From NCBI GenBank assembly GCA_030427405.1, contig JAUHXK010000008.1, forward strand, positions 181,645 to 245,644: DNA of 64,000 bases. The letters run 5' to 3'. This stretch comes from Alphaproteobacteria bacterium. GTDB lineage: Bacteria > Pseudomonadota > Alphaproteobacteria > Rhodobacterales > Rhodobacteraceae. Numbering within the stretch: position 1 is the stretch's first letter; every line of letters begins with the position of its first letter. The position numbers and the translations under genes were made by a program. The notes under the pieces are model-generated. The model did no database searches. It was not told the DNA's origin and saw only the letters and a program-made list of their open reading frames with translations. Of the stretch, positions 9,138 through 63,384 are shown in pieces.

Positions 9138-9140
9138 AAC

Positions 9141-12944: not shown

Positions 12945-14027
12945 TCAGGGGTTGACCCGATAGGTAAAAGCGTCGGTCCGGTCGTTCGGCTGATCCAGAA
13001 GCGCGCGCGTCACCTGCGCGTGCAGCGGTGATTTCCGGCAGATCGGGTCCGTCGCCCCCGCATCGCCCGCAAGGGCCAGCGCCTGGCACCGGCAGCCGCC
13101 AAAGTCGATCTCTTTGCGTTCGCAGCTTTGACAGGGATCAGGCAACCAGTCGGTTCCGCGATAGGCGTTGAACGCAGGGCTGTCGTTCCAGATGTCGGCC
13201 AGCGCATGGTCCCGGATATTCTGGAACTCAAGATGCGGGATAGTCTCGGCCGCGTGGCAGGGCAGGACCGTTCCGTCCGGTGTCACGTTCAGCCCGGTCG
13301 ACCCCCAGCCGTTCATGCAGGCCTTGGGGTAATCAGCGTAGTAATCCGGTGGTACAAAGTCAAAGGCCAGGACGCCCTGCAAACGCCGCGCGGCTTCGGC
13401 AACTGTTGCCTTGACCGCCTGCGTCTGCTCGCGTGTCGGCAGCAACGCGGCCCGGTTGCCCAGGGCCCAACCGTGGAATTGAACACAAGCAACCTCAAGC
13501 CGGCGGGCCCCAAGCTCGACCGCGATTTCAATCGTCCGGTCCAGGTCGTCCAGGTTTTGGCGGTGCATAACCGCGTTGAGTGTCAGCGGGATGCCGCGGG
13601 CCTTGATCTCTTGGGCGACGGCCATCTTGCGGTCAAACCCACCGCGATAGCCACCAATCCGGTCGGCCAGGGCGGCATTGGTGCCCTGCAGGGACAGTTG
13701 GATATGGTCCAACCCCTCGGCTTCGAGCTGATCCAGACGGCGCGACGTCAGGCCAATGCCCGAGGTGATCAGGTTGGTGTAAAGCCCGGCTTCCGAGGCG
13801 CCGCGGGTTAGGTCTTCGAGGTCGCGCCGCGCTGCGGGCTCGCCCCCGGACAGGTGAACCTGCAGGACGCCAAGCTCGGCCGCCTGCCGGAACGCTTTGA
13901 TCCATGTATCGGTATCCAGTTCCGCGTTCTTGCGCACCAGCTCGGTCGGGTTGCTGCAATATGGGCAACTGAGAGGGCACCGATGCGTCAGCTCGGCAAG
14001 CATCGCGATGGGCGGTTGCACGGTCAT
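12945..14027 (-). CDS. pqqE: PQQ biosynthesis radical SAM enzyme
   Basis: [16 protein letters not shown] and SPASM cysteines ([24 protein letters not shown]). Confidence 0.96.
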
Positions 14028-14311
14028 TGCCGCACCATCAGGTACAGCCGCGCGCGCAGCGTGCCAAGAAAGCGCTGCACGTCGGCCTCGATTTGATCGG
14101 GGGGCGCGTCATATGCCGCGGCCAGGTCGGTTACGATCTGGTTCATGCTCGACTGCCCATCGACGCGTGACAGGATGGCCACGCCGGGTTCGTCCAGTTC
14201 CAGAACTTTCTCGGGGGCCAGCAAAACTGTCCGGCCGCGCACCTTGTCGGCATGTACCCGAACGCCGCGCGGCAAATAGGGGCGATCTTCGGGTTTCAGG
14301 CCGACTGTCAT
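14024..14311 (-). CDS. pqqD: PQQ precursor chaperone
   Basis: LPRGVR...VLLAPE...ILSRVDG RRE-type fold; lies between pqqC and pqqE. Confidence 0.92.
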
Positions 14312-15036
14312 AGCATTCCTTCCCCCGGACGCCATGCGCCCGGTGGAATGCGGCCGGGTTCGACATAAGCGCCCCACAACGCGTCTAGCTGGGCCCACAA
14401 CACGTTGGTTTTGAAGATCAGGGCATCACAGGCCATGTCTTCTTTTTCCGCGTTGTCAGCGTGATCCAGCACCCATTTCAGCCCGAACGCGACGTCTTTT
14501 GGGGCCTCGGTCAGGCGTTTGCGGAAATACGAAAGGCTGTCGGGATTGGCGAAATCGTAATGCTCTAGCAGCCCTTCGATGCGCTGTTCGTGAATCTTTG
14601 GGGCAAATAGCTCGGTCAGCGATGATGCGACGGCCTGCAACAAGGGGCGGTCGCGGACATAGTGGATATAGGCATCCACGGCGAATTGCGTCGCCGGCAG
14701 CACGCCACGACCCGAGGCGACATAATCCGGGTCCAGCCCGACGGCCTCGGCCAGTTTCAGCCATCGCCGGATGCCACCGCCTTGGTCGATGCCGCCGTCG
14801 TGGTCCTCGATCCGTGATCGCCACTCGCGCCGCATGTCGGGGTCAGTGCAGCGCGACAGGAACGCCGCGTCTTTCATCGGGATGGCCGCCTGATAGGCCC
14901 AGCGGTTGATGACCCAGGCCCGAACCTGGTCGGGGCTGCATTTGCCGCTGTGCAACTGGTGATGAAAGGGGTGTTTGTCGTGATAGCGTTCAGCGCCGAT
15001 CTGGCGCAGGCGGCGCTCCAATGTCTCCCGGCTCAT
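14308..15036 (-). CDS. pqqC: Pyrroloquinoline-quinone synthase
   Basis: [21 protein letters not shown] and LTELFAP. Confidence 0.96.
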
Positions 15037-15920
15037 GCCACGATCTCCTGCCCGTCCCGAGCAATGCGCCACCCGGCGTCCAGAACAAAGGCATGTTCCG
15101 GCCCGTCAGGTTGCAGGATCGGGTTCGTGTTGTTGATATGAATAAAGACCTTGGCCGCATCCACCCCGGCCAGCATGGCAACAGATCCGTCCGGGCCGCT
15201 GACGGGGATGTGCCCCATTCGACGCCCGGTCTTGATCCCGGTGCCCGAGCGGATCATCTCGTCATCGTCCCACAACGTGCCGTCAAAGAACAACAGATCG
15301 GCATCTGCAAATTGGGCCAGCAAAGTGTCAGTCACCTGTGCGCATCCGGGAACGTAATAGGCGACCTTGCCGGAACCGGCCAGACGAACGCCCACGGTCT
15401 GTTCGCCGATCAGATCGGTTTGGACAGTCTCGCCTTCCATGAACAGCGGGACTTTGCCGGGCACGGCAAAGATACGGGCGCTCAACCCGTCCTGCAGCGT
15501 GAAATCGGTGTCCAGCGCAATCGGATTGCGCCCCACCTTATCGCGGCTCAGCGCGTCAAAGACCCGATTTGCTGATAACACGTCCAGGATGTCTTGGGTT
15601 GCAAACAGGGTAAACGGTGTCTGTTCGCGCAGGCTGAGCAACCCTGCGATATGGTCGATATCACCGTTGGTCAAAAGCACCGACTGCACCGGCGTATCGC
15701 GCAGGGCGCGCGGGTGCAGCTGCGTGTTGTCCAGCATTTGTTGGCGAATATCAGGGGATGCGTTCAGAACACTCCAGTGTTCGCCGTCAACCGATACGGC
15801 CAACGACGATTGGCCGGAAGGCGGGATCACGCCTTTGCGCGCATCCTCGCAATTCCGGCAGCCACAATTCCATTGTGGCAACCCACCGCCCGCAGAAGCC
15901 CCTAGAACCAGAAAATGCAC
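15033..15920 (-). CDS. pqqB: PQQ biosynthesis protein PqqB
   Basis: LGASAGGGLPQWNCGCRNC, NASPDIR, DIDHIAGL and HINNTNP; GTG start. Confidence 0.95.
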   Translation of the reverse strand: MHFLVLGASAGGGLPQWNCGCRNCEDARKGVIPPSGQSSLAVSVDGEHWSVLNASPDIRQQMLDNTQLHPRALRDTPVQSVLLTNGDIDHIAGLLSLREQTPFTLFATQDILDVLSANRVFDALSRDKVGRNPIALDTDFTLQDGLSARIFAVPGKVPLFMEGETVQTDLIGEQTVGVRLAGSGKVAYYVPGCAQVTDTLLAQFADADLLFFDGTLWDDDEMIRSGTGIKTGRRMGHIPVSGPDGSVAMLAGVDAAKVFIHINNTNPILQPDGPEHAFVLDAGWRIARDGQEIVA

Positions 15921-15948: not shown

Positions 15949-16056
15949 TCAGAACAGGTCGCGGTCCTGTTCGCGTCCTTCGTCCTCGGATGGAGAATAC
16001 ATGTTGATTTCCATACCGCAGTTAACTTCTTTGAGTTTAGGTGCGCTCCAAGCCAT
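15949..16056 (-). CDS. pqqA: PQQ precursor peptide PqqA (35 aa)
   Basis: MAWSAPKLKEVNCGMEINMYSPSEDEGREQDRDLF with E-x3-Y; GGAGG upstream; not in the ORF track. Confidence 0.93.
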   Translation of the reverse strand: MAWSAPKLKEVNCGMEINMYSPSEDEGREQDRDLF

Positions 16057-16135: not shown

Positions 16136-16254
16136 CCGACCGCGGGTCGGGATTGGTGGCCGCGATACCGCGCGCGGAAATGTGAACGGATTGCGCCGCG
16201 CGCTAGGACTTTCGTCGAATGTTGCTTGGCACTTGCGCTTTATAGTCTCCGTCC

Positions 16255-18333
16255 ATGCGCGCATTTCTTGTGATGATCACGGTTCTTGTCGTCCGCGTTC
16301 TGGTCAGCCCGGGCGCATCGGCTGATCCCTTGCCGCGTGAACAGTTGGAACCCTATGTTCGCGCGCCTTTTTCCCTGGGCGAGCGCCTGAGTGACAATGG
16401 CGTCTACGCGCTGCTGAACTCGGGCGGGAGCGAGGCCGGATACGTCTTTGAAACCGAACCGCTTGCCCCGCTTCCGGGGTTTTCCGGGGCACCGATCAAC
16501 ATGCTGGTGGTTCTGGACCTCGAGGGTCGGTTCATGGATGTCCAACTGATCGCGCATAACGAGCCGATCTTTGTGTCCGGGCTGGGCGAGGCGCCGTTTT
16601 ACAAGTTTTTCGAACAATATGGCGGTTTGTCGATATCCGATTCCATTGTGGTGGGAACGCCCTATGGCGACGGCGCATCAGGGTCGTCGCTGGTCTATCT
16701 TGACGGCGTAACCAAGGCCACGGCCAGCGTGCGAATAGCCCATGAATCGGTGATGGGCGCGGCGCTCGCTGTCGCACGCGAAAAGATGCAGGGTCTGGCC
16801 ACTACTCCGCCTGCTTTTCCCGATCCCGATCACGAAGAGGCACTGACATGGGACGATCTGGCTTCGCAGGGCATTGCAACCCGCAAGACGGTAAGCAATG
16901 CGCAGGTCGATGCCCTGTTTTCCGGGACGCTCTGGGCAGAGGATGATCCCGAGGCAAATGAGTTTCCGGATGAGGCTTTCCTTGACCTGTGGATCGTCGA
17001 TCTGGGGCCAAAGTCAATTGCGCGGGCCGTTCTGGCCGAAGATACGTTCGATGAACTTCAGCGTTTTCTGGCAATCTCGGATAATGATGAGCCGATCCTG
17101 CTGATCGAATCTGCGCGTCACGGTTTGGTCAGCGACGACTTTGTCCGCAACACAGCGCCGGATTGGATTTCGGCGGAACAGGACGGGTTTCCCATTGCGT
17201 TGCGGGATGCCGACCTGTTTGTCGAACTGGTCCCCGACGCGCCCGAGGGGGCTGCCATGATCCTGCGGACGGATCGCAGGCTGGGGTTCGACCCGTCGCG
17301 CCCCTGGACGCTCAAGGTGCTTGCGGTGCGAGAGCACGGGATGTTCCAGCCCGAGATTGGCTCGGTAACGTTGGAAAGCCAGCATCAAACGCCGCCGCGC
17401 TTCTTTCTGCAACCGGTTCAGCATGTGCCTGTGCCGCCGTGGCGCGAGGCTTTGCGCAATCGTCAGGCGGACCTTGTCTGGCTTGGCGTTTTTCTGGTCG
17501 GTTTGGTCCCGGTGCTTGCATTTGGCATGAACAGGCTTGCAGGCGCGCGCTTATTCACACCCATTCGTCTGGGTGTTCTGGCGGTGGTCGTCGGTTTTGT
17601 CGGCTGGTGGGGGCAGGGGCAATTGTCGATCGTGACGGTTTTGGGCGTGATCCGCACCGCCACCGAAGGCGGCAGCTTTGCCTTTCTTGTGTATGACCCG
17701 TTTTCGCTGGCGGTCTGGGCCGTGGCGATCCTGGGCTTCGTGGCCTGGGGCCGGGGCCTGTTCTGTGGCTGGCTGTGCCCCTTTGGCGCCTTGCAGGAAT
17801 TTGCGCACCATCTGGGGCGCGCTCTGCGCATACCGCAAGTCGAGCCTTCGCCGAAATGGGACAGGCGGTTGAAATGGCTGAAATATATTGTATTGGCCGC
17901 GCTTGTGATCACCGTGTTCGTGGCGCCGGATCAGGTCGACAAGGCGGCCGAGGTCGAACCTTTCAAAACCGCGATTACCACCTATTTCCTGCGCGAATGG
18001 TACTATGTCGCCTATGCGGTTTTCTGGATCGTGGCGGCGATGGTCCTGTTCAAGGGCTTCTGCCGCTATCTGTGTCCTTTGGGCGCCTTCATGGCCATCG
18101 GAGGGTTGCTGCGCGGGCGCGACTGGATTGCACGACGGGCAGAATGCGGATCGCCCTGTCAACTCTGCCGCGTCAAATGCAAATATGGCGCCATCGAGCG
18201 CCAAGGGAAAATACGGTATGACGAGTGTTTTCAATGTCTGGATTGCGTCACCATCCACGATGATCCGCAGCAATGTGTCCCGCTGATCCTGTCCCGCCGC
18301 AAGGGCACCCGCGACGCGGTGGCGGCACAATGA
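16255..18333 (+). CDS. NosR/NirI-like membrane protein (periplasmic FMN-binding domain, TM helices, 4Fe-4S domain)
   Basis: GFSGAPINMLV, DGVTKAT flavinylation-like site, FCGWLCPFG and FCRYLCPLG, CGSPCQLCRVKC and CFQCLDC. Confidence 0.85.
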   Translation: MRAFLVMITVLVVRVLVSPGASADPLPREQLEPYVRAPFSLGERLSDNGVYALLNSGGSEAGYVFETEPLAPLPGFSGAPINMLVVLDLEGRFMDVQLIAHNEPIFVSGLGEAPFYKFFEQYGGLSISDSIVVGTPYGDGASGSSLVYLDGVTKATASVRIAHESVMGAALAVAREKMQGLATTPPAFPDPDHEEALTWDDLASQGIATRKTVSNAQVDALFSGTLWAEDDPEANEFPDEAFLDLWIVDLGPKSIARAVLAEDTFDELQRFLAISDNDEPILLIESARHGLVSDDFVRNTAPDWISAEQDGFPIALRDADLFVELVPDAPEGAAMILRTDRRLGFDPSRPWTLKVLAVREHGMFQPEIGSVTLESQHQTPPRFFLQPVQHVPVPPWREALRNRQADLVWLGVFLVGLVPVLAFGMNRLAGARLFTPIRLGVLAVVVGFVGWWGQGQLSIVTVLGVIRTATEGGSFAFLVYDPFSLAVWAVAILGFVAWGRGLFCGWLCPFGALQEFAHHLGRALRIPQVEPSPKWDRRLKWLKYIVLAALVITVFVAPDQVDKAAEVEPFKTAITTYFLREWYYVAYAVFWIVAAMVLFKGFCRYLCPLGAFMAIGGLLRGRDWIARRAECGSPCQLCRVKCKYGAIERQGKIRYDECFQCLDCVTIHDDPQQCVPLILSRRKGTRDAVAAQ

Positions 18334-19220
18334 TTACCCGGCGGCGGTTTCTGGCCATATCTGCCGCGAGCCTGGCCAGCCCCGCACGGGCGACACCCTT
18401 TCGATGGCGGGGACACGCCTTGGGGGCCGAGGTCAGCCTGACGCTGGATGCAGACATTTCCCAGGCGCGCACCGTGATGACGCAGGTCAGGAACGCTTTG
18501 GCCGAATGTGAAAACCTGTTCAGCCTCTACCGGCCTCACTCCGCTTTGTCCCGGTTGAACCGGGATGGGTTTGTCGCGGCGCCGGACGCCCGGTTTTATC
18601 GCCTCTTGCGTCACTGTGATCATATGCATGCCGTGACCGGGGGGCGGTTCGATCCTACGGTTCACACCCTTTGGACGGCACATGCCCGGGGGCAGGATAC
18701 CGCAGCCGCCCGGATGGCGGTCGGCTGGTCCCGTGTTGGCCTGGACCGGGGCCGTATCTCACTTGGCAAGGGGCAGGGGCTGACGCTCAACGGAATTGCC
18801 CAAGGCTTTGCAACGGACTGGGTTGCGGGCCTCCTGCACGAGGCCGGGCTGAAGAACATACTGGTGAATATCGGCGAGTTTCACGCCGGTGGCAGATACT
18901 GGACACTCGGCATTTCCGACCCTGAACGTGGGCTTATTGCCACGCGAAAATTAAAGGACCGGGCCGTCGCAACATCCAGCCCCGGCGCGATGCTGCTGGC
19001 CGATGGCCAGTCGCATATCGTGAACACGATCGGCACTCGAAACCCGGTCTGGTCGACTGTCAGCGTCGAGGCGACCGACGCGACCACAGCCGACGCACTT
19101 TCCACCGCATTTTGCCACGCAACACCAAATGAGATCGCGGCAATGCTCAAACGCACACCCGGCAATCCTGTCGCGATTTGTGTTCCAACCAAGGGTGCGA
19201 TCCAAACTATTTTCGGCTAA
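18330..19220 (+). CDS. apbE: FAD:protein FMN transferase (ApbE/NosX family), Tat-exported
   Basis: MITRRRFL Tat signal; FDPTV, LNGIAQG, LVNIGE, AVATS and ADALSTA; ATGA overlap with the NosR-like gene. Confidence 0.88.
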   Translation: MITRRRFLAISAASLASPARATPFRWRGHALGAEVSLTLDADISQARTVMTQVRNALAECENLFSLYRPHSALSRLNRDGFVAAPDARFYRLLRHCDHMHAVTGGRFDPTVHTLWTAHARGQDTAAARMAVGWSRVGLDRGRISLGKGQGLTLNGIAQGFATDWVAGLLHEAGLKNILVNIGEFHAGGRYWTLGISDPERGLIATRKLKDRAVATSSPGAMLLADGQSHIVNTIGTRNPVWSTVSVEATDATTADALSTAFCHATPNEIAAMLKRTPGNPVAICVPTKGAIQTIFG

Positions 19221-19278: not shown

Positions 19279-20070
19279 CTACAGGCTCGCCATTACGGCG
19301 CGTTTTGTCATGACGCTGACGAGATGTGCGCGGTATGCTTTGCTGCCATGCAGGTCGGCGATCATGTTTGCGGGGTTTATGCTGAGGCCGGTCAGGGCGT
19401 CGGGGCGGAATTCCTTGTTCAGGGCGGCCTCCGCCTCTGTCCAGCGGAACACGCCGTCTTCGCTGGCGCCGGTGACGGCCACACGTACGCCGTCGGCGAA
19501 CCGCGCCACGTAGACACCCACCAGTGCAAAGCGGGACGCGGGCTGCAGGAACTTCTGATAGCTCGCCGCCTGCGGCACCGGAAACCGGACCGAGGTGATG
19601 ATCTCGCCCTCTTCCAGCACGGTGGCGAACATGCCTTCGAAAAAGTCATCCGCCGCAACCTGCCGGGTATTGGTCACGATCGTGGCCCCCGAGCCCAGCA
19701 CACCCGCCGGATAGCAGGCCGCCGGATCATTGTTGGCCACCGACCCGCCAATGGTGCCGCGATTGCGCACCGCCGGGTCACCGATCTGACCGGCCAGCGC
19801 CGCCAGCGCCGGATACGATCCTGCCGCCTCGGCGGCCACGATGGCATGGGGCGTTGCCCCGCCGATGACCAGCGCCCCGTCATCCTCGACACAGACGCCC
19901 CGCATCTCGGCAATCCCGCTCAGCGACACCAGGACCGACGGCGCCGCCAGCCGCTGCTTCAGCGTCGGGATCAGGGTCTGCCCCCCACCCAGCGCCTGCG
20001 CATCTTCGGCCCCCAACGCAGCAACCGCATCGGCAATACTCGAGGGCTTTTCAAAATCGAAACTGTACAT
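19279..20070 (-). CDS. coxM: Xanthine dehydrogenase family FAD subunit (CoxM-like)
   Basis: LGGGQTLIP, IGDPAVRNRGTIGGS, NNDPAA and ASRFALVG. Confidence 0.85.
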   Translation of the reverse strand: MYSFDFEKPSSIADAVAALGAEDAQALGGGQTLIPTLKQRLAAPSVLVSLSGIAEMRGVCVEDDGALVIGGATPHAIVAAEAAGSYPALAALAGQIGDPAVRNRGTIGGSVANNDPAACYPAGVLGSGATIVTNTRQVAADDFFEGMFATVLEEGEIITSVRFPVPQAASYQKFLQPASRFALVGVYVARFADGVRVAVTGASEDGVFRWTEAEAALNKEFRPDALTGLSINPANMIADLHGSKAYRAHLVSVMTKRAVMASL

Positions 20071-20104
20071 TTCGTCTTCCTTTCCGAAAGGCGCGGATCC
20101 GCCC

Positions 20105-20150
20105 TTCATCTGGCTATAAATATCCCGGGGGTCTGGGGGCAGAGCCCCCA
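20105..20150 (+). repeat. 46-bp REP-like intergenic element, copy 1
   Basis: TTCATCTGGCTATAAATATCCCGGGGGTCTGGGGGCAGAGCCCCCA; 36/46 identical, ungapped, to the reverse complement of 27290-27335. Confidence 0.75.
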
Positions 20151-20164
20151 GCCGCACCAACCTC

Positions 20165-22525
20165 TCAGCTGTTCATCGCCGCCCAGACGCGCGACGGGCT
20201 TACCGGCATGTCGATGTGATCCACCGCCTTGCCGCCCGAATTCATCGCATCCAGAACCGCATTGACCACCGCCGGCGGAGAGCCGATGGCCCCGGCCTCA
20301 CCACAGCCCTTCACCCCCAACGGGTTATGCGTGCAGGGCGTCTGGCTGGAATGATCCACGCCGTAAAACGGCACATCATCGGCGCGCGGCATGGCGTAAT
20401 CCATGAAGGACGCGCTCAGCAGCTGGCCATTCTCGTCATAGGCGCAGTTCTCAAGCAGCGCCTGGCCGATGCCCTGGCCAATTCCGCCATGAACCTGGCC
20501 ATCCACGATCATCGGGTTGACGATGTTGCCAAAGTCATCGGCGGCGGTGAAGGCCTCGATGGTCACCTGGCCGGTCTCGGGGTCCAGCTCGACCTCGCAG
20601 GCATAAGCGCCCGAGGGGAAGGTGAAGTTGGCCGGGTCATAAAACGCGGTCTCCTCCAGCCCCGGCTCAACCTCCAGCGGGAAGTTATGCGGCACATAGG
20701 CCGTCAGGGTCACATCGCCCCAGGCCACCGATTTGTCGGTGCCTGCCACGCTGAACTGACCATCCTTCAGCTCGATATCCGCCTCCGAGGCCTCCAGCAG
20801 GTGGGCTGCGATCTTCTTGGCCTTGTCGATCACCTTCTCGGTGGCCTTCACCATGGCCGAGCCACAGACCGCAAGGCTGCGCGAGCCATAGGTGCCCATG
20901 CCAAACGGGATCTTCGAGGTGTCGCCATGCACGATCTCGACCATCGATTCATCAATGCCGATCATGTCGGCCACAACCTGCGGAAAGGCGGTCTCATGCC
21001 CCTGACCGTGGCTATGCGCACCCACCATGACACTGATCGAGCCGGTGGCATTCACCCGCACGGTCGCCGCGTCATAAAGACCCGCCCGGGCCCCCAGCAT
21101 GCCAACGATGTTCGAGGGCGCAATGCCACACGCCTCGATATAGCAGTTGATGCCCAGGCCCCGCAGCTTGCCCTTGGCCTCACTTGCCGCACGGCGCGCG
21201 GCAAAGCCTGCCAGATCGGCGGCGGCCTCAAGCTTGTCCATCGTTCCGTTGTAATCCCCGGTGTCATAGGTCAGCGCGACCGGCGTGTCATAGGGGAACT
21301 GGGTGATGAAGTTCTGACGGCGCAGGGCAATCGGGTCGACCCCCAACTCGCGCGCGGCCTTGTCCACCACGCGTTCCAGCTGGAACGTCGCCTCGGGCCG
21401 GCCCGCGCCGCGATAGGCATCCACCGGCACCGTATTGGTGAACATCGCCCGGACATTCACCTGAACGACCGGCGTCTTGTAATTGCCCGCCATCAGCGTG
21501 CCGTGCAGCCATGTGGGCACCGAGCTGGAGAAGGTCGACAGATACGCCCCCAGATTGGCATAGGTGTTGGTCCGCAACCCGATAAAGTTATTGTCCGCAT
21601 CCAGCGCCAGTTCGATTGTGCTGACATGATCGCGGCCATGGGCATCCGACATGAACGCCTCGGAGCGGCTCGAGGTCCACTTCACCGGCCGGTTACAGGC
21701 CTTGGCGGCAAAGGTACAGAACGCCTCTTCCGCATAGTGGAAGATCTTGGTGCCAAAACCGCCGCCCACATCCGGGGCCACCACGCGGACCTTGTGCTCG
21801 GGCAGGCCCAGCACGAAGGCGCACATCAGCAGGCGGATCACATGCGGGTTCTGCGAGGTGGTATAGAGCGTGTACTCATCCGTGCCCCGCTTATACTCAC
21901 CCACCGCCACGCGCGGTTCCATCGGGTTGGCGACCAGGCGGTTGTTGACCAGATCCAGCGTGGTCACATGGGCCGCACCCGCAAAGACCTCATTGACCTT
22001 GGCATCGTCAGTCTCGCCCAGTTGCCAGTCATAGCAGATGTTGTTCTTCAGATCGTCATGGACCAGCACAGCACCTTCTTGCGCGGCGGCCTTCATGTCG
22101 ATCACGGCGGGCAGTTCCTCGATCTCGAGGTCGATCGCCTCGGCCGCATCGCGGGCCTGTTCCAGGCTGTCGGCCACAACCGCGGCGATGGGATCGCCCA
22201 CATGGCGCACCTTGCCCTGGGCCAGAATGGGATGCGCAGGCTCCTGCATGGGCGCGCCGTGCTTGTCGGTCACCTCCCAGCCGCAGGGCATGCCGCCCAC
22301 GCCTTCGAAATCCTTGCCGGTAAACACCTTGACCACGCCCGGCATGGCCTCGGCCGCCGAGGTATCAAGACCGGTGATCCGGCCATGCGCGATATCCGAG
22401 CGCAGGAAATAAACATAGGCCTGTCCGGCCACGTTGATGTCGTCGGTATAATTGCCTGCTCCGGTCAGAAAGCGCACGTCCTCGCGCCGCTTGGAACTGG
22501 CTCCGATGCCACTGTCTTTGGGCAT
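20165..22525 (-). CDS. coxL: Molybdopterin-binding large subunit, form II CoxL-like
   Basis: GGGFG, AYRGAGR (21398-21418), GQG, GTYGSRS and KGCGE motifs. Confidence 0.88.
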
Positions 22526-22606
22526 TGCTTGTTCTCCTCCCATAAACGGATGCCGCAAGGCACCCCCTGTCATCCCACGGGCGTCTTGCCTACGCCCGCA
22601 GCGGCA

Positions 22607-23089
22607 TCATTCGGCGGCGATGTGGCTTACATCCTGGCCCGAAGCGGCCATGATCGCCTTGACGATGTTGTGATAGCCCGTGCACCGGCACAGGTTGCCC
22701 TCAAGATACTTGCGCACCTCAGCTTCCGTCGGGCGCGGATTGTCCTTCAGCAAGGCCGCAGCGCTCATCACCATGCCAGGTGTACAAAACCCGCATTGCA
22801 ACCCGTGATGATCCTGAAACGCCTGCTGGATCACGCTCAGAGACCCGTCCGCATGCGCCTGACCCTCGATCGTGCCAACCTCGGCCCCATCCGCCTCAAG
22901 CGCCAACATGTTGCAAGACTTCACCGCAACACCATCAACATGAACAACACACGCACCACACTGCGCCGTGTCACACCCAACATGCGTCCCGGTCAAAGAC
23001 AGCTGATCACGCAAAAATCCAGACAATAACGTCCGACCCTCAACGTCACCCTCAACCAAACGACCGTTAACGGTCATCGATACCTTCAT
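22607..23089 (-). CDS. coxS: 2Fe-2S small subunit (CoxS-like)
   Basis: [20 protein letters not shown] and CRC. Confidence 0.92.
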
Positions 23090-51151: not shown

Positions 51152-53380
51152 CTATGCGTCCGTGCTGACAAGGGCGCCGCCCCGACAATCCTGAAGGAAA
51201 GACATCAGCTTTTGCGTATCTATCGGCTTTCGGATCAACGTAAACCCGTTCAACGCGCAGGCCTTGTCCAAATCCTCGGACCGGTTGGCCGAGATGACGC
51301 AGGCCGGAACCGAACCGAACTCGGCCGTCAGGTTCTGAATTGCGTCCACACCGGAACGCGCATTGTCCAACTGGTAATCGGCAATGATCAGATCCGGCTG
51401 AATTTCGATTTCGCGCAACAGGCTGGCGGCCTGCTCTTCACCCGCACATTCGATGACATGGACGCCCCAGCTTTCCATCGTCATCGTAAGCGCGTTGCGC
51501 AAATCGCCATCGTTTTCAATCAGCAGGGCAATCGTGCTTTGCGCTATGGCCGCCCCCGAGGCGTTGCCCGCCTCCTTGCCGCCTTGCACAGCGGGCGCCG
51601 AGGGCATCAGCGGCACCGTTACCGAAAACGCGGTTCCCTGGCCTACGCGGGATTGCAACCGGATCGGGTGGTTCAGCAATCCGCATGCCCTTTCGACAAT
51701 CGCCAGACCCAGCCCCATGCCCTCTGCCGCGCTTGCATCCGAATGCAGGCGCTGAAACTCGTGAAACACGATTTCCTGCTGGTCTTCTGATATCCCAATC
51801 CCTGTATCGTGAACCTCGATGCTGACGGCTTTGCCGCGTCGGCGCACGCCCACAAGCACCCTGCCCGTTTCGGTATAGCGGATGGCATTTGACACCAGGT
51901 TCTGCAGAATTCTGCGCAAATAGCTGGCGTCGCTGCGCACCACGATGCTGGTCGGAACCAGGTGAAACTCCAGCCCCTTGGCCTGTGCAACGGGCCGGAA
52001 GGCATCCCCCAACTGGGTGAACAACTCGCCCAGCGGAACCGCGGATTCATGCACCGACGCGCGCCCCGAATCCAGTTTCGAGATATCCAGAAGTGCTTCG
52101 AGGATATGCTCGACACTGTTCAGCGCGCTTTCCGCCTTTTCCGAAACCGCCCTTGCATCCATTTCGTCCAACCCCCGGCCAAGGGCTGCGACATAAAGCT
52201 TGGCCGCCGACAGCGGTTGCAACAGGTCATGGCTGGCCGCAGCCACAAAGCGCGATTTAGAGGCATTCGCCCGCTCGGCGTCTTTGAGCGCGTCGGCAAG
52301 CTCTTCGGTGCGCGCCTCGACACGATGTTCCAAAAGTTCCTTGGCCTCGACCAGCGCCTTGGCCGATTTTGTCTCGTCGGTAATATCGGTAAACGAGATA
52401 ACGAAACCGCGGTCCGGCATCTCCTGCGCAAATACCGACAGAATTTTGGAACGCCCGCTATGTATCTGCAGGTTAAGCGGCGACCGCTCGGTACTGCTGT
52501 CGATCCAGGCCAGGAATTCGGCACTGGTCGCGCCGCCCTCGAACCGAATGTTCGAGCCCAGGCGTTTGAAAATTGAAGAAAATTGCGATCCCATGCGAAA
52601 CTCGGCCGTGGGAATGGCAAGCAGCTCGCTGGCCCGGTTGTTCCACCCCACCAGCCGCTGTTTCTTGTCAAAGATGCACACGCCCTGGTCGATATGTTCC
52701 AGCGTGGCCCGGATCAGCCGCGCCTGATCGTCAAGAAGCCTGTCCCTTTCTTGTCGCTCAATGCGCATGATATCCGAGACATCGGTCTGCAGGATGACGG
52801 TTCCGCCATCGGGGGTCCGATGTTCCGAGACCTGAATCCAGCGGTTGCCGGTCAGGCGGACATTAAAGACAACATGGTCATCCGCATGCCGCGCCATGCG
52901 CTGCGTGACCCAATCTTGCGCGGTTTCGTTCTCGGGCAACGACAGGTATTCCGACTGGCTGACAAGCGCGACATAGTCGAAAAACCGCAAGCCGGGCAGC
53001 AATTTGTCCTGAATATCGGGCATGTGCATGCCAAAACGGCTGTTGCACATGACCAGGTCCTCATCGAGGTTGAACAGGGCAAACCCTTCCCGAACCGTTT
53101 CAATCGCATTGGCCAGGTTGGACCGCGCCGCTTCGGTTTCCCGGTTCGCCTCGGCCAGACGGGCGTTGGAATCGTTGAGAAGATCAAGCGCGCGTTCCAG
53201 ATCATGGGTGCGCGCGCGCACCTCTTCCTCAAGCATCGCCGCGCGCTGAAACTGCGCATAGGCCGCACCCGTGGCGTCGGTCGATTCCTCGACCCGGCGC
53301 ATCAGCGCAGCCGCGATTTTCAGCAGCTTTTCGTTCTGACGTTCCAGCGGGTCATTCGGGTCGATCAGGGACTGATGCAT
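51152..53380 (-). CDS. PAS-domain hybrid sensor histidine kinase (NahK/ErcS-like)
   Basis: Two PAS-like segments, AAASHDLLQPL H-box, N/G boxes and a C-terminal receiver domain (IIADYQL). Confidence 0.9.
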   Translation of the reverse strand: MHQSLIDPNDPLERQNEKLLKIAAALMRRVEESTDATGAAYAQFQRAAMLEEEVRARTHDLERALDLLNDSNARLAEANRETEAARSNLANAIETVREGFALFNLDEDLVMCNSRFGMHMPDIQDKLLPGLRFFDYVALVSQSEYLSLPENETAQDWVTQRMARHADDHVVFNVRLTGNRWIQVSEHRTPDGGTVILQTDVSDIMRIERQERDRLLDDQARLIRATLEHIDQGVCIFDKKQRLVGWNNRASELLAIPTAEFRMGSQFSSIFKRLGSNIRFEGGATSAEFLAWIDSSTERSPLNLQIHSGRSKILSVFAQEMPDRGFVISFTDITDETKSAKALVEAKELLEHRVEARTEELADALKDAERANASKSRFVAAASHDLLQPLSAAKLYVAALGRGLDEMDARAVSEKAESALNSVEHILEALLDISKLDSGRASVHESAVPLGELFTQLGDAFRPVAQAKGLEFHLVPTSIVVRSDASYLRRILQNLVSNAIRYTETGRVLVGVRRRGKAVSIEVHDTGIGISEDQQEIVFHEFQRLHSDASAAEGMGLGLAIVERACGLLNHPIRLQSRVGQGTAFSVTVPLMPSAPAVQGGKEAGNASGAAIAQSTIALLIENDGDLRNALTMTMESWGVHVIECAGEEQAASLLREIEIQPDLIIADYQLDNARSGVDAIQNLTAEFGSVPACVISANRSEDLDKACALNGFTLIRKPIDTQKLMSFLQDCRGGALVSTDA

Positions 53381-53386
53381 ATCAGG

Positions 53387-54553
53387 TCATTTTGCCGGAG
53401 GATAAATGGCAACCCCCGTCAGGGTCTGGTTCACATGCAGCGAATTATACTGCTCTCCGTAGGTCGAGAACCCCACCACATGGTTCTTGGCCAGCACCTT
53501 GGACAACGCGCCGGTCATCTGTTTTTCCTGGGCTTCCAGCCGTCGCAGAAGACAGTCGCAACCCAAAATGGTGTCGGGCTGCATTTCGGCCGTCAGAACC
53601 GAGATTTCCTGTTCCAGATGCCGCACCATGTCCAGCGGTTCCGCCAACGTCAGGACCAGGCCTTCGTCGATTGCGGAAAAGAACACCAGGTCGCCATTGC
53701 CCGCGACCCGCTGGATCGCACGCACGTGATGCTGTCCGCCGATCTGGACAACGACCGGATGCGCGGCAAAGGTAAACGCGGTCAGTTGCTCGGGGTCTTT
53801 GCCCAGAATGCGCGCATATTCGCGCGCCGCTGGCTCTGCGTTGATTTCGCGCACGACCCGGCGCGCCGGGTCCGCATCCGTGACGACCATGCGCTGTGCG
53901 CTTGGCACCAGGTGGTCCGATTTGAACACCTTGATCGGGCAGTTTGTGCGCACCTGGGTCAGGATGGCTGCATTTTCAAGCGCCTTGCCTTCGTGCAGGA
54001 CAAAGGTATGCCCAAAGGCCGTTCCGTCCCCCGCTGATCCGCCAAACAGCGGAACCGGCCCCAGCCCGACCGCCAGTTCCGATGTCAGATTGTCCTCTTT
54101 GGTCGACAACCCGTCGATCATCAGAAAGGTGAATTCGTGATGCCAATCCGGTTGCGCCAACATCATGGCGTTTCGGTTCCGGATCATCTCATCAATGATG
54201 TGCTGCGCATTGAACCTGTCGAGATCGGGCACCAACACCACGCGCGTCTGGAAATGCGACTGCGGGAACCCGATGGCGACAATCTGATCTTCGCTATAGC
54301 CTTCGTCAGCCAGTTCGCCAGCCGTGGTACAGCCGACGACCTGCGTGGGTGCAAAGGCGGCTTCGGCCTCGGCGATAACCGCGGCGGCATCAGCGTTTGC
54401 GCTGACGAACAAAATGACAAGCGCCAGCTTGTCTTCGCCCAGCAACTGGACGATCTCTTTCACCGGTTCATCCGAGTCGTATCGGGCGAACGCGGTTTTT
54501 ACGATGCCTGGCGCTCGGGCGCAGGCTGATGCCCACCCGGCAGCTTGGTTCAT
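53387..54553 (-). CDS. FIST-domain sensor (NosP-like)
   Basis: VVGCTTAGE, IDGLS, LFGGSAGDG and GFSTYGEQ. Confidence 0.9.
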   Translation of the reverse strand: MNQAAGWASACARAPGIVKTAFARYDSDEPVKEIVQLLGEDKLALVILFVSANADAAAVIAEAEAAFAPTQVVGCTTAGELADEGYSEDQIVAIGFPQSHFQTRVVLVPDLDRFNAQHIIDEMIRNRNAMMLAQPDWHHEFTFLMIDGLSTKEDNLTSELAVGLGPVPLFGGSAGDGTAFGHTFVLHEGKALENAAILTQVRTNCPIKVFKSDHLVPSAQRMVVTDADPARRVVREINAEPAAREYARILGKDPEQLTAFTFAAHPVVVQIGGQHHVRAIQRVAGNGDLVFFSAIDEGLVLTLAEPLDMVRHLEQEISVLTAEMQPDTILGCDCLLRRLEAQEKQMTGALSKVLAKNHVVGFSTYGEQYNSLHVNQTLTGVAIYPPAK

Positions 54554-54598
54554 CGTGCCTCCTCCCTAAAAGCGCGACGATCTCAGAAACCTTGCAGA

Positions 54599-55282
54599 TT
54601 AGCCGTGCTCTTGCAAGACGCTGGCAAAGGACGCCTTCTTTGCGATCAGCACCGCCTGGGTGCGGCTTTGCACGCCCAGCTTGCGCATGATGGCCGTAAC
54701 ATGCGCCTTTACAGTGGTTTCCGCAATCGACAGGTCAAACGCGATCTGCTTGTTCAGCTTTCCTTCGCAGATCAGGTGCAAAATACGAGCTTGCTGATTG
54801 GTCAACGTGCCCAGTCGGCTGACGGCGTCGCTTTGTTCATCCGTATCATCGGCGTCCAGCAGAACGCATCCCTCGGGCAGGAATGTCCTGCCGTGGGTCA
54901 AAGCCTCGAACGCGGTGCGAAACACGTCCCTTTGGCTGTGTTTGGGAACATACCCGGATGCCCCCGCATGTATGACCTGGCTGATGACCCGGTTGTCCGA
55001 CAGTGACGACACCACGATCACCGGTGCGTCTGCCGCCGACTTGAGGCGCACCAACCCGTCCAGCCCATCCACATCTGGCAGGTTCAGGTCCAGCATGACC
55101 GCGTCAGGCTTTAACCCATTGGCAATCAGGCCAAGCGCAGCTTCAAGCCGATCTGCGGTATGCACCTCTCCGATTTGGGCGACCGACTGCAATGTCATGG
55201 ACAGCGCATCGCAAAACAGCGGGTGATCATCCACGATCAGAACGTTTTCGAAATCCACGTCGTCAACCTTGTTCGCAAGCAT
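54599..55282 (-). CDS. NarL/FixJ-family response regulator (ErbR/AgmR-like)
   Basis: VDDHPLF and LDLNLP receiver; LuxR HTH NKQIAFDLSIAETTVKAHV. Confidence 0.92.
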   Translation of the reverse strand: MLANKVDDVDFENVLIVDDHPLFCDALSMTLQSVAQIGEVHTADRLEAALGLIANGLKPDAVMLDLNLPDVDGLDGLVRLKSAADAPVIVVSSLSDNRVISQVIHAGASGYVPKHSQRDVFRTAFEALTHGRTFLPEGCVLLDADDTDEQSDAVSRLGTLTNQQARILHLICEGKLNKQIAFDLSIAETTVKAHVTAIMRKLGVQSRTQAVLIAKKASFASVLQEHG

Positions 55283-55423: not shown

Positions 55424-57190
55424 TTAGTTGGCCGAGGCCAGTTCCTTGGGCAGTTTAAACGTCCACAAGGTGCCACCCTGGTTGAGATAGTTGACCTTCT
55501 TGGCCACCTCGCCGCCCCACAGCGGGACCGCGCCACCCCAGCCCGAGATGATCGAGACATATTGCTCGCCATCCTGTTCCCAGGTCACGGGCTGTCCGAC
55601 GATGCCCGAGCCGGTCTGGAACGACCACAGCTTTTCGCCGGTTTCGTCATCCAGCGCGATGAACTCGCCCTCTGGCGTGCCAAAGAACACCAGCCCACCG
55701 GCCGTGGTCATCACACCCGACCAAAGCGGAGCATCGTTCTTGAATTCCCACTTCCATTCGCCGGTATCGGGATCAATCGCCTTGAGCGATCCGATATGGT
55801 CTTCGTAGTTCGGCTTGATGGTAAAGCCAGCACCCAGATAGGCCGCACCTTTCTTATAGGTGATCGGCTCGTTCCAGATATCCATGCCCCATTCGTTGGT
55901 GGGAACATAGAAATTGCCGGTCCGCTGCGAGAACGCCATCGGCATCCAGTTCTTGCCACCCAGGAAGGACGGCGACGCAAACACGACCTCGCCCTTGTTT
56001 CCGTCAGCCGCAGCCGAGGGATTGCCCGGGCGGTTGCCCTCGACAAATATCGGACGGCCCGTGTCGTCGATGCCATCAGCCCATGTGATGTCCTTGACGA
56101 AGGGGTTGGCGGAAACAAACGCGCCATCTTCGCGATTGAGGACGTAGAAATAGCCGTTACGGTCCGCGGTGGCATAACGTTTGTTACCCTCGCGGTCGGT
56201 ATAGGCCACGACCTCGTTCACGCCGTCATAATCCCACCCTTCGCGGGGGGTCGTCTGGTAATGCCACTTGATATCGCCGGTTTTCGGGTCGATCCCGATG
56301 CGGCTGGCCGCATAGAGGTTGTCGCCTTTGTTGCCCTCGGTCGGCTCGCCCGCGTCGCGCAGCCACGAGTTCCAAGGCGCAGGGTTGCCCGCCCCAAAGA
56401 TCAGCGTGTCGGTATCGGCGTCATACGAGCCGCCCAGCCAGGTCGCGCCGCCGCCGGTTTTCCACATGTCACCGGGCCAGGTCGCGTTCAACTCGCCGGT
56501 CATGGTGCTTTCTTCGCCGTTCAGCGTGCCCATATGGCCTTCGATCACCGGACGGGTCCAGACAATGTCACCCGTATTGGCATCGCGCGCCTGAACCTCG
56601 CCAACAATCCCGAATTCACCGCCCGAATTGCCAGTGATGATCAGCCCATCGACGATCAGCGGTGCCGCAGTATAGGAATAGCCCGCCTTGTAGTCAGCGA
56701 TCTTGTCACGCCAGACCACGTCGCCCGTTTTCATGTCCAGCGCCACGATGCGCGCATCCAGCGTGCCAAAGAAAATCTTGTCGCCATAAATGGCCGCACC
56801 GCGGTTCACCACGTCACAGCACGGCAGGATCCCTTCGGGCAGGCGGGCGTCGTATTGCCAGACCTCCTTGCCGGTCGCCAGGTCGATTGCGTAAAGCCGC
56901 GAATAGGACCCGGTGATATACATCATCCCGTCATAAATCAGCGGCTGCGTTTCCTGGCCGCGCTGCTTTTCGCCCCCCAGGCTGAAAGCCCAGGCCGGCA
57001 GCAGGTTTTTCACGTTGTCTTTGTTGAGCGTCTCCAGCGGGCTATAACGCTGAAGGTGGCGGCCCATACCGTTTGTCACAACCTGGGTCGTGATCGTTTG
57101 GTCATTGGCCAGATCGTCCTCGGTAACTTCTGCGGAAGCGGTGCCTGCAACTAAAACGCTTGCGACCGCAGCCATGATAAACCGGCTCAT
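55424..57190 (-). CDS. pedH: PQQ-dependent alcohol dehydrogenase, type I, predicted lanthanide-dependent (PedH/ExaF-like)
   Basis: Signal peptide; [15 protein letters not shown] vicinal disulfide, SGGEFG and WDYDGVNE (56213-56236). Confidence 0.85.
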
Positions 57191-59117: not shown

Positions 59118-59903
59118 CTACTGACGCTTCATGCCTCGCGCCGGGTCATAACCCCACAAAGCGGCACCCGCAAAGACAAGCCCTGCCAGCATTGTCCAGA
59201 ACAAGGCCATCGCGTTGAACTGCCCGTAAAGGGCAAAGCGGATCAATTCGACCGCATGGGTGAACGGATTGATCGCGCAGATATCGCGCAGAAGCGCCGA
59301 ACTTTCAGCCATTTTCCAAAGCGGGTACAGCGCGGATGACAGGAAAAACATCGGGAAGATGACAAAGTTCATCACGCCGGCGAAATTCTCAAGCTGACGA
59401 ATGGCGGACGACAGCGCAAGGCCAAGCGCCCCGAGCATCAGGCCGCTGACCAGCAGCGCAGGCAGAACCAGCACATAGCCCTGCCAGGGCATGTCGATAC
59501 CATAAAGTGCGGCAACCGCCAGAAACGTATACACTTGCAGAACAGAAATCGCGGTGCTGGCGAACAGCCTGCAAAACAGCAGCCACCACCGCGGCAGCGG
59601 GCTGGTCAGCAACAGGCGCATCGACCCCATCTCACGGTCATAAACCAAGCTAAGAGAGCTTTGCATGCCGTTGAAAAGAATGATCATTCCGCACAGGCCG
59701 GGAACAATGTAAATCTCGTAGGTGATATAGGTCTGATATGGCGGCGTAATCGACAGACCCAGCGCGGCGCGAAACCCTGCGGCGAATACCACCAGCCAGA
59801 CCAGCGGGCGGATCAGCGCCGCAATGAACCGGCTGCGCTGGCGGACAAAGCGCAGCCCCTCGCGAATGGTGATGGCCTGCAATGCGACCAGTGCGGGCGT
59901 CAT
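59118..59903 (-). CDS. ABC-2 type permease of the PQQ-dehydrogenase-associated system (PedC-like)
   Basis: YIVPGLCGM, DREMGSMR and FFLSSALYPLW. Confidence 0.88.
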   Translation of the reverse strand: MTPALVALQAITIREGLRFVRQRSRFIAALIRPLVWLVVFAAGFRAALGLSITPPYQTYITYEIYIVPGLCGMIILFNGMQSSLSLVYDREMGSMRLLLTSPLPRWWLLFCRLFASTAISVLQVYTFLAVAALYGIDMPWQGYVLVLPALLVSGLMLGALGLALSSAIRQLENFAGVMNFVIFPMFFLSSALYPLWKMAESSALLRDICAINPFTHAVELIRFALYGQFNAMALFWTMLAGLVFAGAALWGYDPARGMKRQ

Positions 59904-60619
59904 GCGGTTTCACCGGTCATGGTCAGAAACACATCCTGCAGCGGCTGGCCTGCGGTCAGTGCGCTGCATTGCGCCTGTTTCAAAAGCCTGCCGCGATGCA
60001 GGACGGCGACTTGGTCGTCCGGGGCGATTTCATCCGTCAGATGGGTGGCCCACAAAACCGTCATGCCGTCCTGCCGGGACAGGTCGTGGACATGGTGCGT
60101 AATCGCCTTGCGCGATGCGGCGTCCAGCCCCACCGTGGGTTCATCCAACAACAGGACCGAGGGGGCGTGGATCAGGCAGCGCGCGATTTCCAGCCGCCTG
60201 CGATGCCCCCCGTTCAGGTCCCGCGCCCGCTCTGCCGCGCGCTCCGCCATGTCCAGCCGTTCCAGCGCGGCCGTGATCCTGTCCTGCGCCAACCGGCCCG
60301 ACAGACCGTGCAGGGCTGCGAAATAGGACAGGTTGCGCTGAACGCTCAGGTCCAGATCCAGAGTGGGCTGCTGAAACACCACACCGATCTGCGCAAGCGC
60401 CTTTCTGGGCGAGCGCGCCAGGTTGTGCCCGGCGATCTCGATCTCTCCTTCAGAGGTCGTGAACAGCCGCGTCATCAGCGAAAACAGGGTGGACTTACCT
60501 GCCCCGTTCGGGCCCAGCAAAGCGCAAAACGCACCCTGCGGGACGTGAAAGCTCACATCATCCAGGGCGCGTTTCGAGCCGTAGCTATAGCTGACGTTGC
60601 GGACTGCAAGCCCGGTCAC
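59900..60619 (-). CDS. ABC ATP-binding protein (PedB-like)
   Basis: GPNGAGKS, LNGGHRRR, LLDEP and ATH; GTG start. Confidence 0.92.
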   Translation of the reverse strand: MTGLAVRNVSYSYGSKRALDDVSFHVPQGAFCALLGPNGAGKSTLFSLMTRLFTTSEGEIEIAGHNLARSPRKALAQIGVVFQQPTLDLDLSVQRNLSYFAALHGLSGRLAQDRITAALERLDMAERAAERARDLNGGHRRRLEIARCLIHAPSVLLLDEPTVGLDAASRKAITHHVHDLSRQDGMTVLWATHLTDEIAPDDQVAVLHRGRLLKQAQCSALTAGQPLQDVFLTMTGETA

Positions 60620-61071
60620 TTGATGGTAATCTCCAATCTCTGCGTTTCCCCGGTGCTGCCGGGAACCTTCAGATAATAGCTGCCGGGCTTGATCGCGACA
60701 AAGCCTATTTCCATTTCGCCCGCCTCGTCGAATTCGATGGAATCCAGACCCAGTGGCCGAACTTCCAACCCTTCGACGACAATCTCGTCAATCCAGATGG
60801 CGCGGAAAAACTCGGGCCCGACTATGGCAAGCTCCTGACTGCCGTCACCCTGGATCTCGAACTCGTAATAGGTTCCTGATTTCAGCTCCCAGGGCGCGTC
60901 TGACAAGGGCATGCCAGCAGACAGGATCACCGGCGGAAGGTCCTCTTTGTTGCCCGCAGACAATAGCCCGGCCAACCCGAACCCGTCGTCGTCATCGTCG
61001 TCATTGTCCGCCAGCGATGCCGCAGGGAGTGCAAGCGCCAGCATCGCGGCCACGGCCACCAGTTTTCTCAT
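60616..61071 (-). CDS. Secreted protein with N-terminal poly-Asp tract and a possible cupredoxin-like beta domain
   Basis: Signal peptide then DNDDDDDDG; ELKSGTYYEFEI and FVAIKPGSYYL; AAGGAG upstream. Confidence 0.8.
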   Translation of the reverse strand: MRKLVAVAAMLALALPAASLADNDDDDDDGFGLAGLLSAGNKEDLPPVILSAGMPLSDAPWELKSGTYYEFEIQGDGSQELAIVGPEFFRAIWIDEIVVEGLEVRPLGLDSIEFDEAGEMEIGFVAIKPGSYYLKVPGSTGETQRLEITIK

Positions 61072-61092
61072 GATCAAATCTCCTTGATAAGT

Positions 61093-62055: not shown

Positions 62056-62060
62056 TACCT

Positions 62061-63227: not shown

Positions 63228-63284
63228 CTGCTGGTCGTCCTCCTCAGGGGGCATTTAAGAACGGCGCCAAGCTGCGATGAAATC

Positions 63285-63329
63285 CGACCTTAGTCGCAAC
63301 TAGCGGCCCATGTTCAACCAAGGTCGAAT
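63285..63329. promoter_or_regulatory. Two degenerate, more palindromic versions of the regulator box in the SBP/pedF divergent gap
   Basis: CGAC-CTTA-GTCG (63285-63296) and TTCAAC-CAAG-GTCGAA (63313-63328). Confidence 0.45.
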
Positions 63330-63384
63330 TTCGCGCTGATTCTACGTCGGCTATGACCGGGGAAAGCGTCTGAAGGAGGACAAG

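Follow-up and report, generated by a model that had tools for sequence, protein, structure and literature searches.

The stretch of DNA analysed here (the window) comprises 64,000 nucleotides of contig JAUHXK010000008.1, from a member of the Rhodobacteraceae, and contains a two-gene operon that codes for a NosR-family transmembrane iron-sulphur flavoprotein, which we refer to as S (open reading frame, ORF, 16255-18333; also P0001), and a transferase of the ApbE family. We find that S accompanies one clade of PedH-like, lanthanide-type alcohol dehydrogenases (ADHs) dependent on pyrroloquinoline quinone (PQQ) almost one-to-one across the marine Rhodobacteraceae, that the genes are linked by position and by a common promoter box, and that S has the architecture, conserved ligands and gene pairing of the NosR type. 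It is probable that S and its ApbE partner form a third transmembrane electron conduit of the NosR/NirI type, dedicated to the quinoprotein alcohol-oxidation system. Lanthanide-dependent alcohol oxidation in this oceanically abundant group would then have S as a near-obligate component that has gone unrecognised. A NosR-type machine, whose function is still debated even for nitrous oxide (N2O) reductase, would also be tied to a periplasmic enzyme that is aerobic, easy to assay and found in marine bacteria that can be cultured (Ruegeria, Phaeobacter). In annotations, the S orthologous group is misleadingly named '4Fe-4S binding protein', 'regulatory protein NosR' or 'regulator of nitric oxide reductase'.

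The phyletic pattern was examined in 301 genomes of the same family (Rhodobacteraceae), one per genus, of which 58 contain an orthologue of S and 243 do not. A PQQ-ADH of the window type (at least 79% identity) is present in 57 of the 58 genomes with S and in three of the 243 without it, and the division is a clean one, matches to the window PQQ-ADH being bimodal at either at least 79% or at most 56% identity. In the single S genome without a window-type ADH, S sits at a contig edge, and in the three genomes with this ADH and no S the fetched ped locus ends at a contig end where S is expected. The Ped-type beta-propeller gene (TIGR03866) occurs in 55 of the 58 S genomes and in 34 of the remaining 243, and the ped clusters of genomes without S are mostly of another type, with ADHs 35-41% identical. 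S and the ADH are both kept in three genomes (G084, G233 and G042) even though they lie 140 kb to 2.1 Mb apart. The nosZ gene, by comparison, is found in 13 of the 58 S genomes (12.3 expected) and in 51 of the 243 without S. An earlier reading of the window from its sequence alone (the sequence-only reading) had proposed comparing the co-occurrence of this subfamily with pqq and pedH against that with nosZ; the PedH-like ADH tracks S closely, nosZ occurs at chance level and pqqC, identified also by TIGR02111, gives a partial signal, being present in 26 of the 58 S genomes (10 expected) and in 26 of the 243 others. The pqqC enrichment is accounted for by the ped cluster, since among genomes with such a cluster pqqC is found in 26 of 55 with S versus 22 of 34 without S. 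Of the roles which that reading had suggested, a place in quinoprotein metabolism is thus upheld, while the tie to PQQ maturation and pqqA is not, because pqqC is absent from 32 of the 58 S genomes and pqq genes stand beside S in few loci.

Linkage is also evident in gene order. We surveyed 49 orthologous loci from other genomes, taking flanks of up to 9-10 kb in both directions from S and screening them with the window proteins. The usual order is a divergent ATP-binding cassette (ABC) permease gene, S, apbE, a convergent coxM-coxL-coxS-coxG set (in approximately one third of loci), a moxJ-like gene and pedF, followed by genes for PQQ_ABC_bind, the PQQ-associated beta-propeller, a small secreted protein, the ABC ATPase, the PedC permease and the ADH; in loci without nearby cox genes S-apbE directly abuts moxJ-pedF. 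Ped genes lie within 10 kb of S in 39 of the 49 loci and pedF is present in 38, the upstream neighbour of S is an ABC permease gene in 31, and pqqBCE are found beside S in 10 of 50 loci when this window is counted. In the window itself the PQQ-ADH lies 37 kb from S, within a ped block that occupies approximately 51-64 kb in inverted orientation, and a moxJ-like binding protein gene and coxG are just past the window end (pedF to coxG, C18:244951-247254). In other genera coxS leads on to coxG-moxJ-pedF; here some 45 kb comes between them, which looks like the outcome of a rearrangement of that size (an inversion or insertion) whose breakpoint falls between coxS and coxG (window 23100-64000, C18:245791-247254). 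The sequence-only reading drew no link from the S pair to the PQQ-ADH cluster at 51-64 kb, nor to the denitrification set elsewhere in the genome. In one assembly (L074) a homologue 49% identical to S is followed, after apbE, directly by genes for a FIST protein and a PAS kinase, which are typical regulators of ethanol oxidation, and on a second contig among the representatives at 46-49% identity (both contigs are short) an ABC transporter alone is seen beside S.

S and the ped genes also have a promoter element in common. The sequence-only reading had noted that S diverges from pqqA across a 198-bp gap (16057-16254) holding a box, and both statements stand, the box presumably being the one at 16207-16220; it is matched upstream of S in 42 of 46 loci, and in about 40 of these it starts 48-50 nucleotides before the ATG. 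Elsewhere in the window, the best matches to a weight matrix (PWM) built from the S-upstream sites alone are those at 63314-63332 and 63279-63297, with weaker matches before the PQQ-ADH (57287-57305) and facing pqqA (16115-16133), and there are four window matches scoring at least 16 where Markov simulations give about 0.25. In other genera the box occurs upstream of the PQQ_ABC_bind gene in 22 of 37 loci. Because the box is common to the S and ped promoters, these observations point to a single regulon for the two. Most orthologous loci have a cTAg/TATAGT-like element about 22 nucleotides past the box; in the window the TATAGT lies only 8 nucleotides before the ATG and no Shine-Dalgarno sequence was found before the S start codon, and for these reasons the S mRNA is probably leaderless or nearly so. 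A 686-residue database entry for S implies a start at the downstream Met7; the fixed distance from box to ATG in about 40 genera suggests instead that translation truly begins at the ATG of 16255. A further copy of the box (TCGACCATGGTAGAATAAC, score 17.9) is located at 49298-49316, inside the region of a globin and adenylate-cyclase gene pair, and may reflect chance or an internal promoter.

The 692-residue S protein has the architecture of the NosR/NirI superfamily, with a signal peptide, a periplasmic domain binding flavin mononucleotide (FMN), a NosR middle domain, a membrane domain, two CX3CP motifs, and a cytoplasmic tail with two ferredoxin-type clusters. The NCBIfam NosR model (NF046105, an equivalog model) covers residues 41-683 at 443.8 bits, below its cut-off of 1000 bits, and Pfam Fer4_5 (PF12801) matches at 49.8 bits. 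The two CX3CP and two ferredoxin-type motifs that had been recognised from the sequence are confirmed, and all 12 Cys residues of S are invariant in an alignment of 79 diverse homologues extending down to 24% identity. A search of the PDB with the whole S protein sequence gave no match, and the AlphaFold (AF2) model of S (predicted local distance difference test score, pLDDT, 91.7; predicted template modelling score, pTM, 0.78) has RnfG (7zc6_G, E 6e-4) as the best fold match of its N-terminal domain. Neither Pfam scans nor the model revealed a DNA-binding or signalling output domain.

The flavin site departs from the canonical sequence in one position. A profile of the N-terminal domain matches solved RnfG chains with E values of 5e-6 to 9e-5, and in this alignment the S motif ('ldGvtkAT') falls on the ITGST, ITGAT and FAGAT motifs of those chains, so that Thr156 (codon 16720-16722) corresponds to the flavinylated Thr and is the predicted FMN-linked residue of S; the assignment of DGVTKAT as the putative site, made from sequence alone, agrees with this alignment. 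In the AF2 model Thr156 lies at the start of a long helix. The target Thr is at least 90% conserved among the 79 homologues, and the residue two before it is variable across the superfamily (G, K, R, S, T, M, A, Q or H). In all 49 S orthologues it is Lys (44 TKAT, 3 TKGT and 1 QKAT were tallied). The NirI paralogues linked to nirS in the same bacterial family have SRAT, with Arg where S has Lys; the four readable proteins carry D-[IV]-I-S-R-A-T (L096-L100; genomes G145, G178, G042, G183 and G058), a fifth row, a wrong-strand ORF, being left out. The known NirI family thus normally has a basic residue ahead of the target Thr, and we infer that the Lys of S is a fixed trait of the clade and not a sign of decay. 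The earlier concern that the change from Gly to Lys might abolish flavinylation therefore appears unlikely to be justified: the Lys appears to be under selection jointly with the Thr and the dedicated transferase, so that S is probably still flavinylated. A charge swap between the substrate Lys and ApbE (GIAQG in place of the canonical GIAKG) was considered and rejected, as the genome's NosX, partner of an SGAT-type NosR, also has GIAQG. We put forward, as a rather unlikely elaboration, that ApbE specificity or redox potential is set at the position two before the Thr, which holds Gly in NosR, Arg in NirI and Lys in S, and that Lys-type proteins are obligatory reductive activators of lanthanide-dependent PQQ-ADHs in marine Rhodobacteraceae; if true, the residue would pair each NosR-type protein with the ApbE paralogue that belongs to it or make the flavin potential higher, and S would be the aerobic counterpart of NosR in its role for N2O reductase. 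As a separate observation, a clade of NosR-like proteins (P0144, P0145, P0147, P0151, P0154 and P0135) has lost the Asp and Ala of the motif and kept the Thr (HGVLRGT, NGVTAGT, QGVNHGT).

The partner gene encodes an ApbE/NosX-type transferase, which moves FMN from flavin adenine dinucleotide (FAD) to protein. The reported ATGA coupling of the two genes is exact, with 18330-18333 containing both the apbE start codon (18330-18332) and the S stop codon TGA (18331-18333). Translation from 18330 yields a product starting MITRRRFLAISAASLASPARA, a twin-arginine translocation (Tat) signal, and the longer ORF from 18273 is unneeded. The match to Pfam ApbE (PF02424) scores 139.5 bits against a cut-off of 25.6, and the FDPTV and GIAQG segments and the His of the H-I motif align with solved ApbE chains and are conserved in 45 orthologues; apbE adjoins S in 45 of the 49 orthologous loci. 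There are two ApbE genes in the whole genome, this one and nosX, and NosX reportedly serves maturation in a system-specific way, NirX being unable to take its place (PMC7660919), which fits one transferase per NosR-type protein. The S-linked ApbE is predicted to attach FMN to Thr156 of S.

S is not the NosR of this genome. A second NosR-like gene on contig C3, 31% identical to S, reaches 805.8 bits against the NosR model and precedes a nosZ gene of the Tat type that runs off the contig, with the remainder of nosZ at the start of contig C13; the other ApbE gene (44.5% identical) lies a few kb downstream of that C13 segment, in the nosX position. The denitrification island as a whole (C3:95000-120349 and C13:1-5341) includes three genes with a cd1 domain, nor genes, an FtrB-like regulator, nosR, the split nosZ and nosX. 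The cd1 genes on C3 are of the nirS type, and the nor genes are on that contig too; no nirK was found in the genome, nor any NirI paralogue, though nirS is present. The source genome is that of a denitrifier with its own nosR-nosZ-nosX set outside the S contig, and the reported absence of nos and nir genes from the window extends to the whole of the contig that carries it.

Comparison among genomes gives the same division. Among the 301 genomes identity to S is bimodal, with orthologues at 52% or above and NosR and NirI proteins at 29-37%, and the NirI paralogues are divergent from nirS in five of five genomes. In a FastTree phylogeny of 92 sequences S groups with P0124-P0126 in a clade separate from those of NosR and NirI; two rows of this tree (NosR_L102 and NirI_L099) are wrong-strand ORFs, which distort the midpoint root and are disregarded. 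In a phylum sample of 401 genomes, SGAT-type genes (one of them AGAT) lie within 2 kb of nosZ in seven of seven cases and Lys/Ser-type genes in none of five; four SKAT-type genes and one TSAT-type gene from outside the family (L076, L077, L079, L082 and L084) have no nosZ, ApbE or ped neighbours, and the genes near them are unrelated. S thus differs from NosR in the strict sense by its model score, by its DGVTKAT in place of SGAT and by the absence of an adjacent nosZ, and from NirI by its separate clade, the nirS genes of this genome being on C3.

S has the domain order of the NosR proteins of Pseudomonas (Stutzerimonas) stutzeri and Paracoccus denitrificans, which are matured by ApbE or NosX, and fits the NosR model end to end, with a periplasmic FMN-bind domain and its Thr target, the two CX3CP motifs, the two ferredoxin-type clusters and a dedicated, Tat-exported partner of the ApbE family; unlike NosR, it is never beside nosZ and tracks the PQQ-ADH. 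NirI and NirX of Paracoccus denitrificans similarly combine a NosR paralogue with an ApbE-type gene, a basic residue in the motif and an orientation divergent from the operon of the client enzyme, although that client is cd1 nitrite reductase and identity to S is only 29-34%. The N-terminal domain has the fold of the covalent-FMN subunits RnfG and NqrC, with the motif on the flavinylated Thr, but these are single-domain subunits of ion-pumping complexes and have the canonical (S/T)GAT.

The closest match is to the 'NapH-like' flavinylated systems associated with ExaA, reported from 172 genomes as clusters with exaA (ethanol oxidase) in a purely computational study whose cluster counts were limited to a span of five genes (Méheust et al. 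2021, eLife 10:e66878, PMC8238504). S is a membrane Fe-S protein with PF12801 and an N-terminal, extracytosolic FMN-binding domain, clustered with apbE and linked to a PQQ-ADH, and the S pair appears to belong to this computationally predicted class. The class has its ADH (K00114-type) within five genes, whereas here it is 37 kb away, apparently by rearrangement, the ped genes elsewhere being within 10 kb in most loci. We found neither the motif variant of S nor the near one-to-one tie to the ADH in the searched parts of that article, no occurrence of K00114 or Rhodobacter in the searched text of its supplement, and no experimental follow-up of the ExaA-associated NapH-like class in the literature searched.

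In the mechanism proposed for S, in which flavinylation, electron transfer, client and direction are all predicted from comparative data, the periplasmic ApbE would attach FMN to Thr156 in the periplasmic domain, and S would move electrons across the membrane between its cytoplasmic [4Fe-4S] tail and NapH-like membrane clusters, on the quinone-pool side, and the periplasmic flavin. The client of S in the periplasm would be the lanthanide-type PQQ-ADH system, comprising the PedH-like enzyme and cytochrome c-550 (PedF), and neither N2O reductase nor the enzymes of PQQ biosynthesis. We tentatively favour an outward, NosR-like flow, in which low-potential electrons would hold the ADH or its cytochrome active. 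Two points speak for it: in the prototype, N2O reductase needs NosR to be kept active despite having a cytochrome donor, and PedF is present here too. The quinoprotein reactivation suggested in the sequence-only reading would be one viable mechanism. The same linkage data (ped proximity and ADH co-occurrence) also apply to an inward route, in which S is an alternative electron acceptor of the ADH and electrons pass from PQQH2 (or PedF) through FMN and Fe-S clusters to the quinone pool, giving more energy than the cytochrome c route or coupling alcohol oxidation to anaerobic respiration. NapH relatives are reactive with quinol and quinone, and there is an energetic gain in feeding quinone. An inward route was proposed for exaA-linked NapH-like proteins by Méheust et al. 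2021 (PMC8238504), but their model puts the flavoprotein in place of cytochrome c-550, whereas here PedF is also present. Moreover, in the prototypes NosR and NapH the electrons go outward. Ferredoxin-type clusters and covalent FMN usually lie below PQQ in potential, so that inward flow would probably be uphill, and we regard it as possible, with outward flow somewhat ahead of it.

Other roles are less probable. A partnership with the cytoplasmic molybdenum hydroxylase of the CoxSMLG type (an aldehyde or carbon monoxide dehydrogenase), with electrons entering at the ferredoxin tail and leaving to the periplasm or the quinone pool, would be plausible in that an aldehyde-oxidising enzyme suits an alcohol-oxidation island, and the convergent cox genes directly after apbE here and in 15 of 49 loci, together with coxG beside moxJ, are consistent with it; the cox genes are near S in only about a third of loci, however, and we consider this doubtful. 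Slightly more doubtful is a principal role for S as a redox sensor or regulator of alcohol-oxidation genes. Early genetics connected nosZ and nirS transcription with NosR and NirI, the NCBIfam family is still named 'transcriptional regulator NosR', and the FIST sensor and PAS kinase in L074 would be in keeping with such a role, but S has no output domain, every one of its redox-cofactor ligands is conserved, and current work treats NosR as an electron donor (PMC12052999, PMC7660919). A part in making or maturing PQQ, in partnership with the pqqABCDE genes, is suggested by the divergent arrangement with pqqA here and in nine other loci, by the weak box copy facing pqqA and by the overall pqqC enrichment; given the S genomes without pqqC, the loss of the enrichment once the ped cluster is allowed for, the usual ABC permease neighbour and the cytoplasmic location of the PQQ enzymes, as against the periplasmic flavin domain of S, it is very improbable and largely refuted by the phyletic pattern. 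That S and ApbE are a second NosR and NosX for N2O reductase is favoured by family resemblance only and is already refuted, with a true nosR-nosZ-nosX set elsewhere in the genome, 45 of the 58 S genomes lacking nosZ and the 0 of 5 Lys/Ser-type genes near nosZ in the phylum sample; the earlier suggestion that S does not serve N2O reduction was correct.

Several points nonetheless weigh against a dedicated conduit for alcohol oxidation. Cytochrome c-550 already serves the ADH and a second electron route is not obviously needed, and to our knowledge PedH and ExaA of Pseudomonas function without an S-like protein. The Pfam FMN_bind match in S is weak (13 bits, E 0.15, residues 76-166). The near one-to-one co-occurrence may partly reflect gain and loss of a whole island, and genera that are related do not count as independent; further, the genome was binned from a metagenome, and a search for RNA runs containing the window sequence gave none. 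Finally, in another substrate a change from Gly to Ala at the position of the Lys in S lowers flavinylation without abolishing it (review, PMC12052999).

Table 1. Positions of the S operon, its promoter and motifs, and associated genes in the window.
Feature	Position	Strand	Basis
Conserved box GACTTTCGTCGAAT, consensus GACCwwGGTCGnATA	16207..16220	+	Orthologous upstream regions
-10-like TATAGT, 8 nt before S ATG	16241..16246	+	Sequence reading
S, NosR-family transmembrane Fe-S flavoprotein, 692 aa	16255..18333	+	NCBIfam NosR model, Pfam Fer4_5, AF2 model
Predicted signal peptide of S (MRAFLVMITVLVVRVLVSPGASA before DP; cleavage site inferred)	16255..16323	+	Sequence reading; helix 2-17 in model
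Flavinylation motif variant DGVTKAT, D150-T156 of S	16702..16722	+	Profile alignment onto RnfG motifs
First CX3CP motif of S, CGWLCP, C504-P509	17764..17781	+	Invariant
Second CX3CP motif of S, CRYLCP, C603-P608	18061..18078	+	Cys invariant
Two ferredoxin-type Cys clusters of S, C631/635/638/642 and C658/661/664/674	18145..18276	+	Invariant
ApbE/NosX-type FAD:protein FMN transferase, Tat-exported, translationally coupled to S	18330..19220	+	Pfam ApbE, ATGA overlap
pqqB, pqqC, pqqD, pqqE	12945..15920	-	Pfam; pqqC also TIGR02111
pqqA, 35 aa, divergent neighbour of S, starts MAWSAPKLKEVNCGMEINMY	15949..16056	-	Read by hand
coxM/coxL/coxS-type molybdenum hydroxylase, convergent with ApbE	19279..23089	-	Pfam; same position in 15/49 orthologous loci
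ped regulators: NahK/ErcS'-like hybrid kinase, NosP/FIST sensor, ErdR-like response regulator	51152..55282	-	NCBIfam
PQQ-ADH, methanol/ethanol family	55424..57190	-	TIGR03075, 765 bits
Ped-type transport operon: PQQ_ABC_bind, beta-propeller, secreted poly-Asp protein, ABC ATPase, PedC permease	59118..63254	-	tblastn of NCBIfam-typed orthologues
Two box copies between PQQ_ABC_bind and pedF, divergent region	63279..63332	.	PWM 20.4 and 18.9
pedF cytochrome c-550, runs off window	63385..64000	+	TIGR04494 on orthologue

The remaining features of the ped block and of the flanking genes are as follows. The PQQ-ADH contains WDYDGVNE, with the extra Asp of the lanthanide type, and a vicinal Cys-Cys pair, and a second small gene for a cytochrome c-550-like protein is near it, at 57948-58409. 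Two secreted proteins of the block (60616-61077 and 58489-59115) are conserved and have no family match; one has an Asp run after the signal peptide and the other an acidic stretch (EDEH, or EDDDD in an orthologue) and Sel1-like repeats, and they are possible binders of metal (lanthanide or calcium). A thiol-redox client of S was sought among these two proteins and rejected, as they have no CXXC motif. A periplasmic molybdenum hydroxylase was likewise rejected as a client, since the N-terminus of coxS has no Tat or other export signal. The pqqA product has the EINMY core (Glu-x3-Tyr) followed by an acidic tail (MYSPSEDEGREQDRDLF), and directly upstream of pqqE is a urease operon (ureD, alpha subunit, ureF and ureG) at 7197-12934. 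The window derives from a biofloc metagenome bin, and full-identity matches are present in eight runs from two studies, one of biofloc and one of another metagenome.

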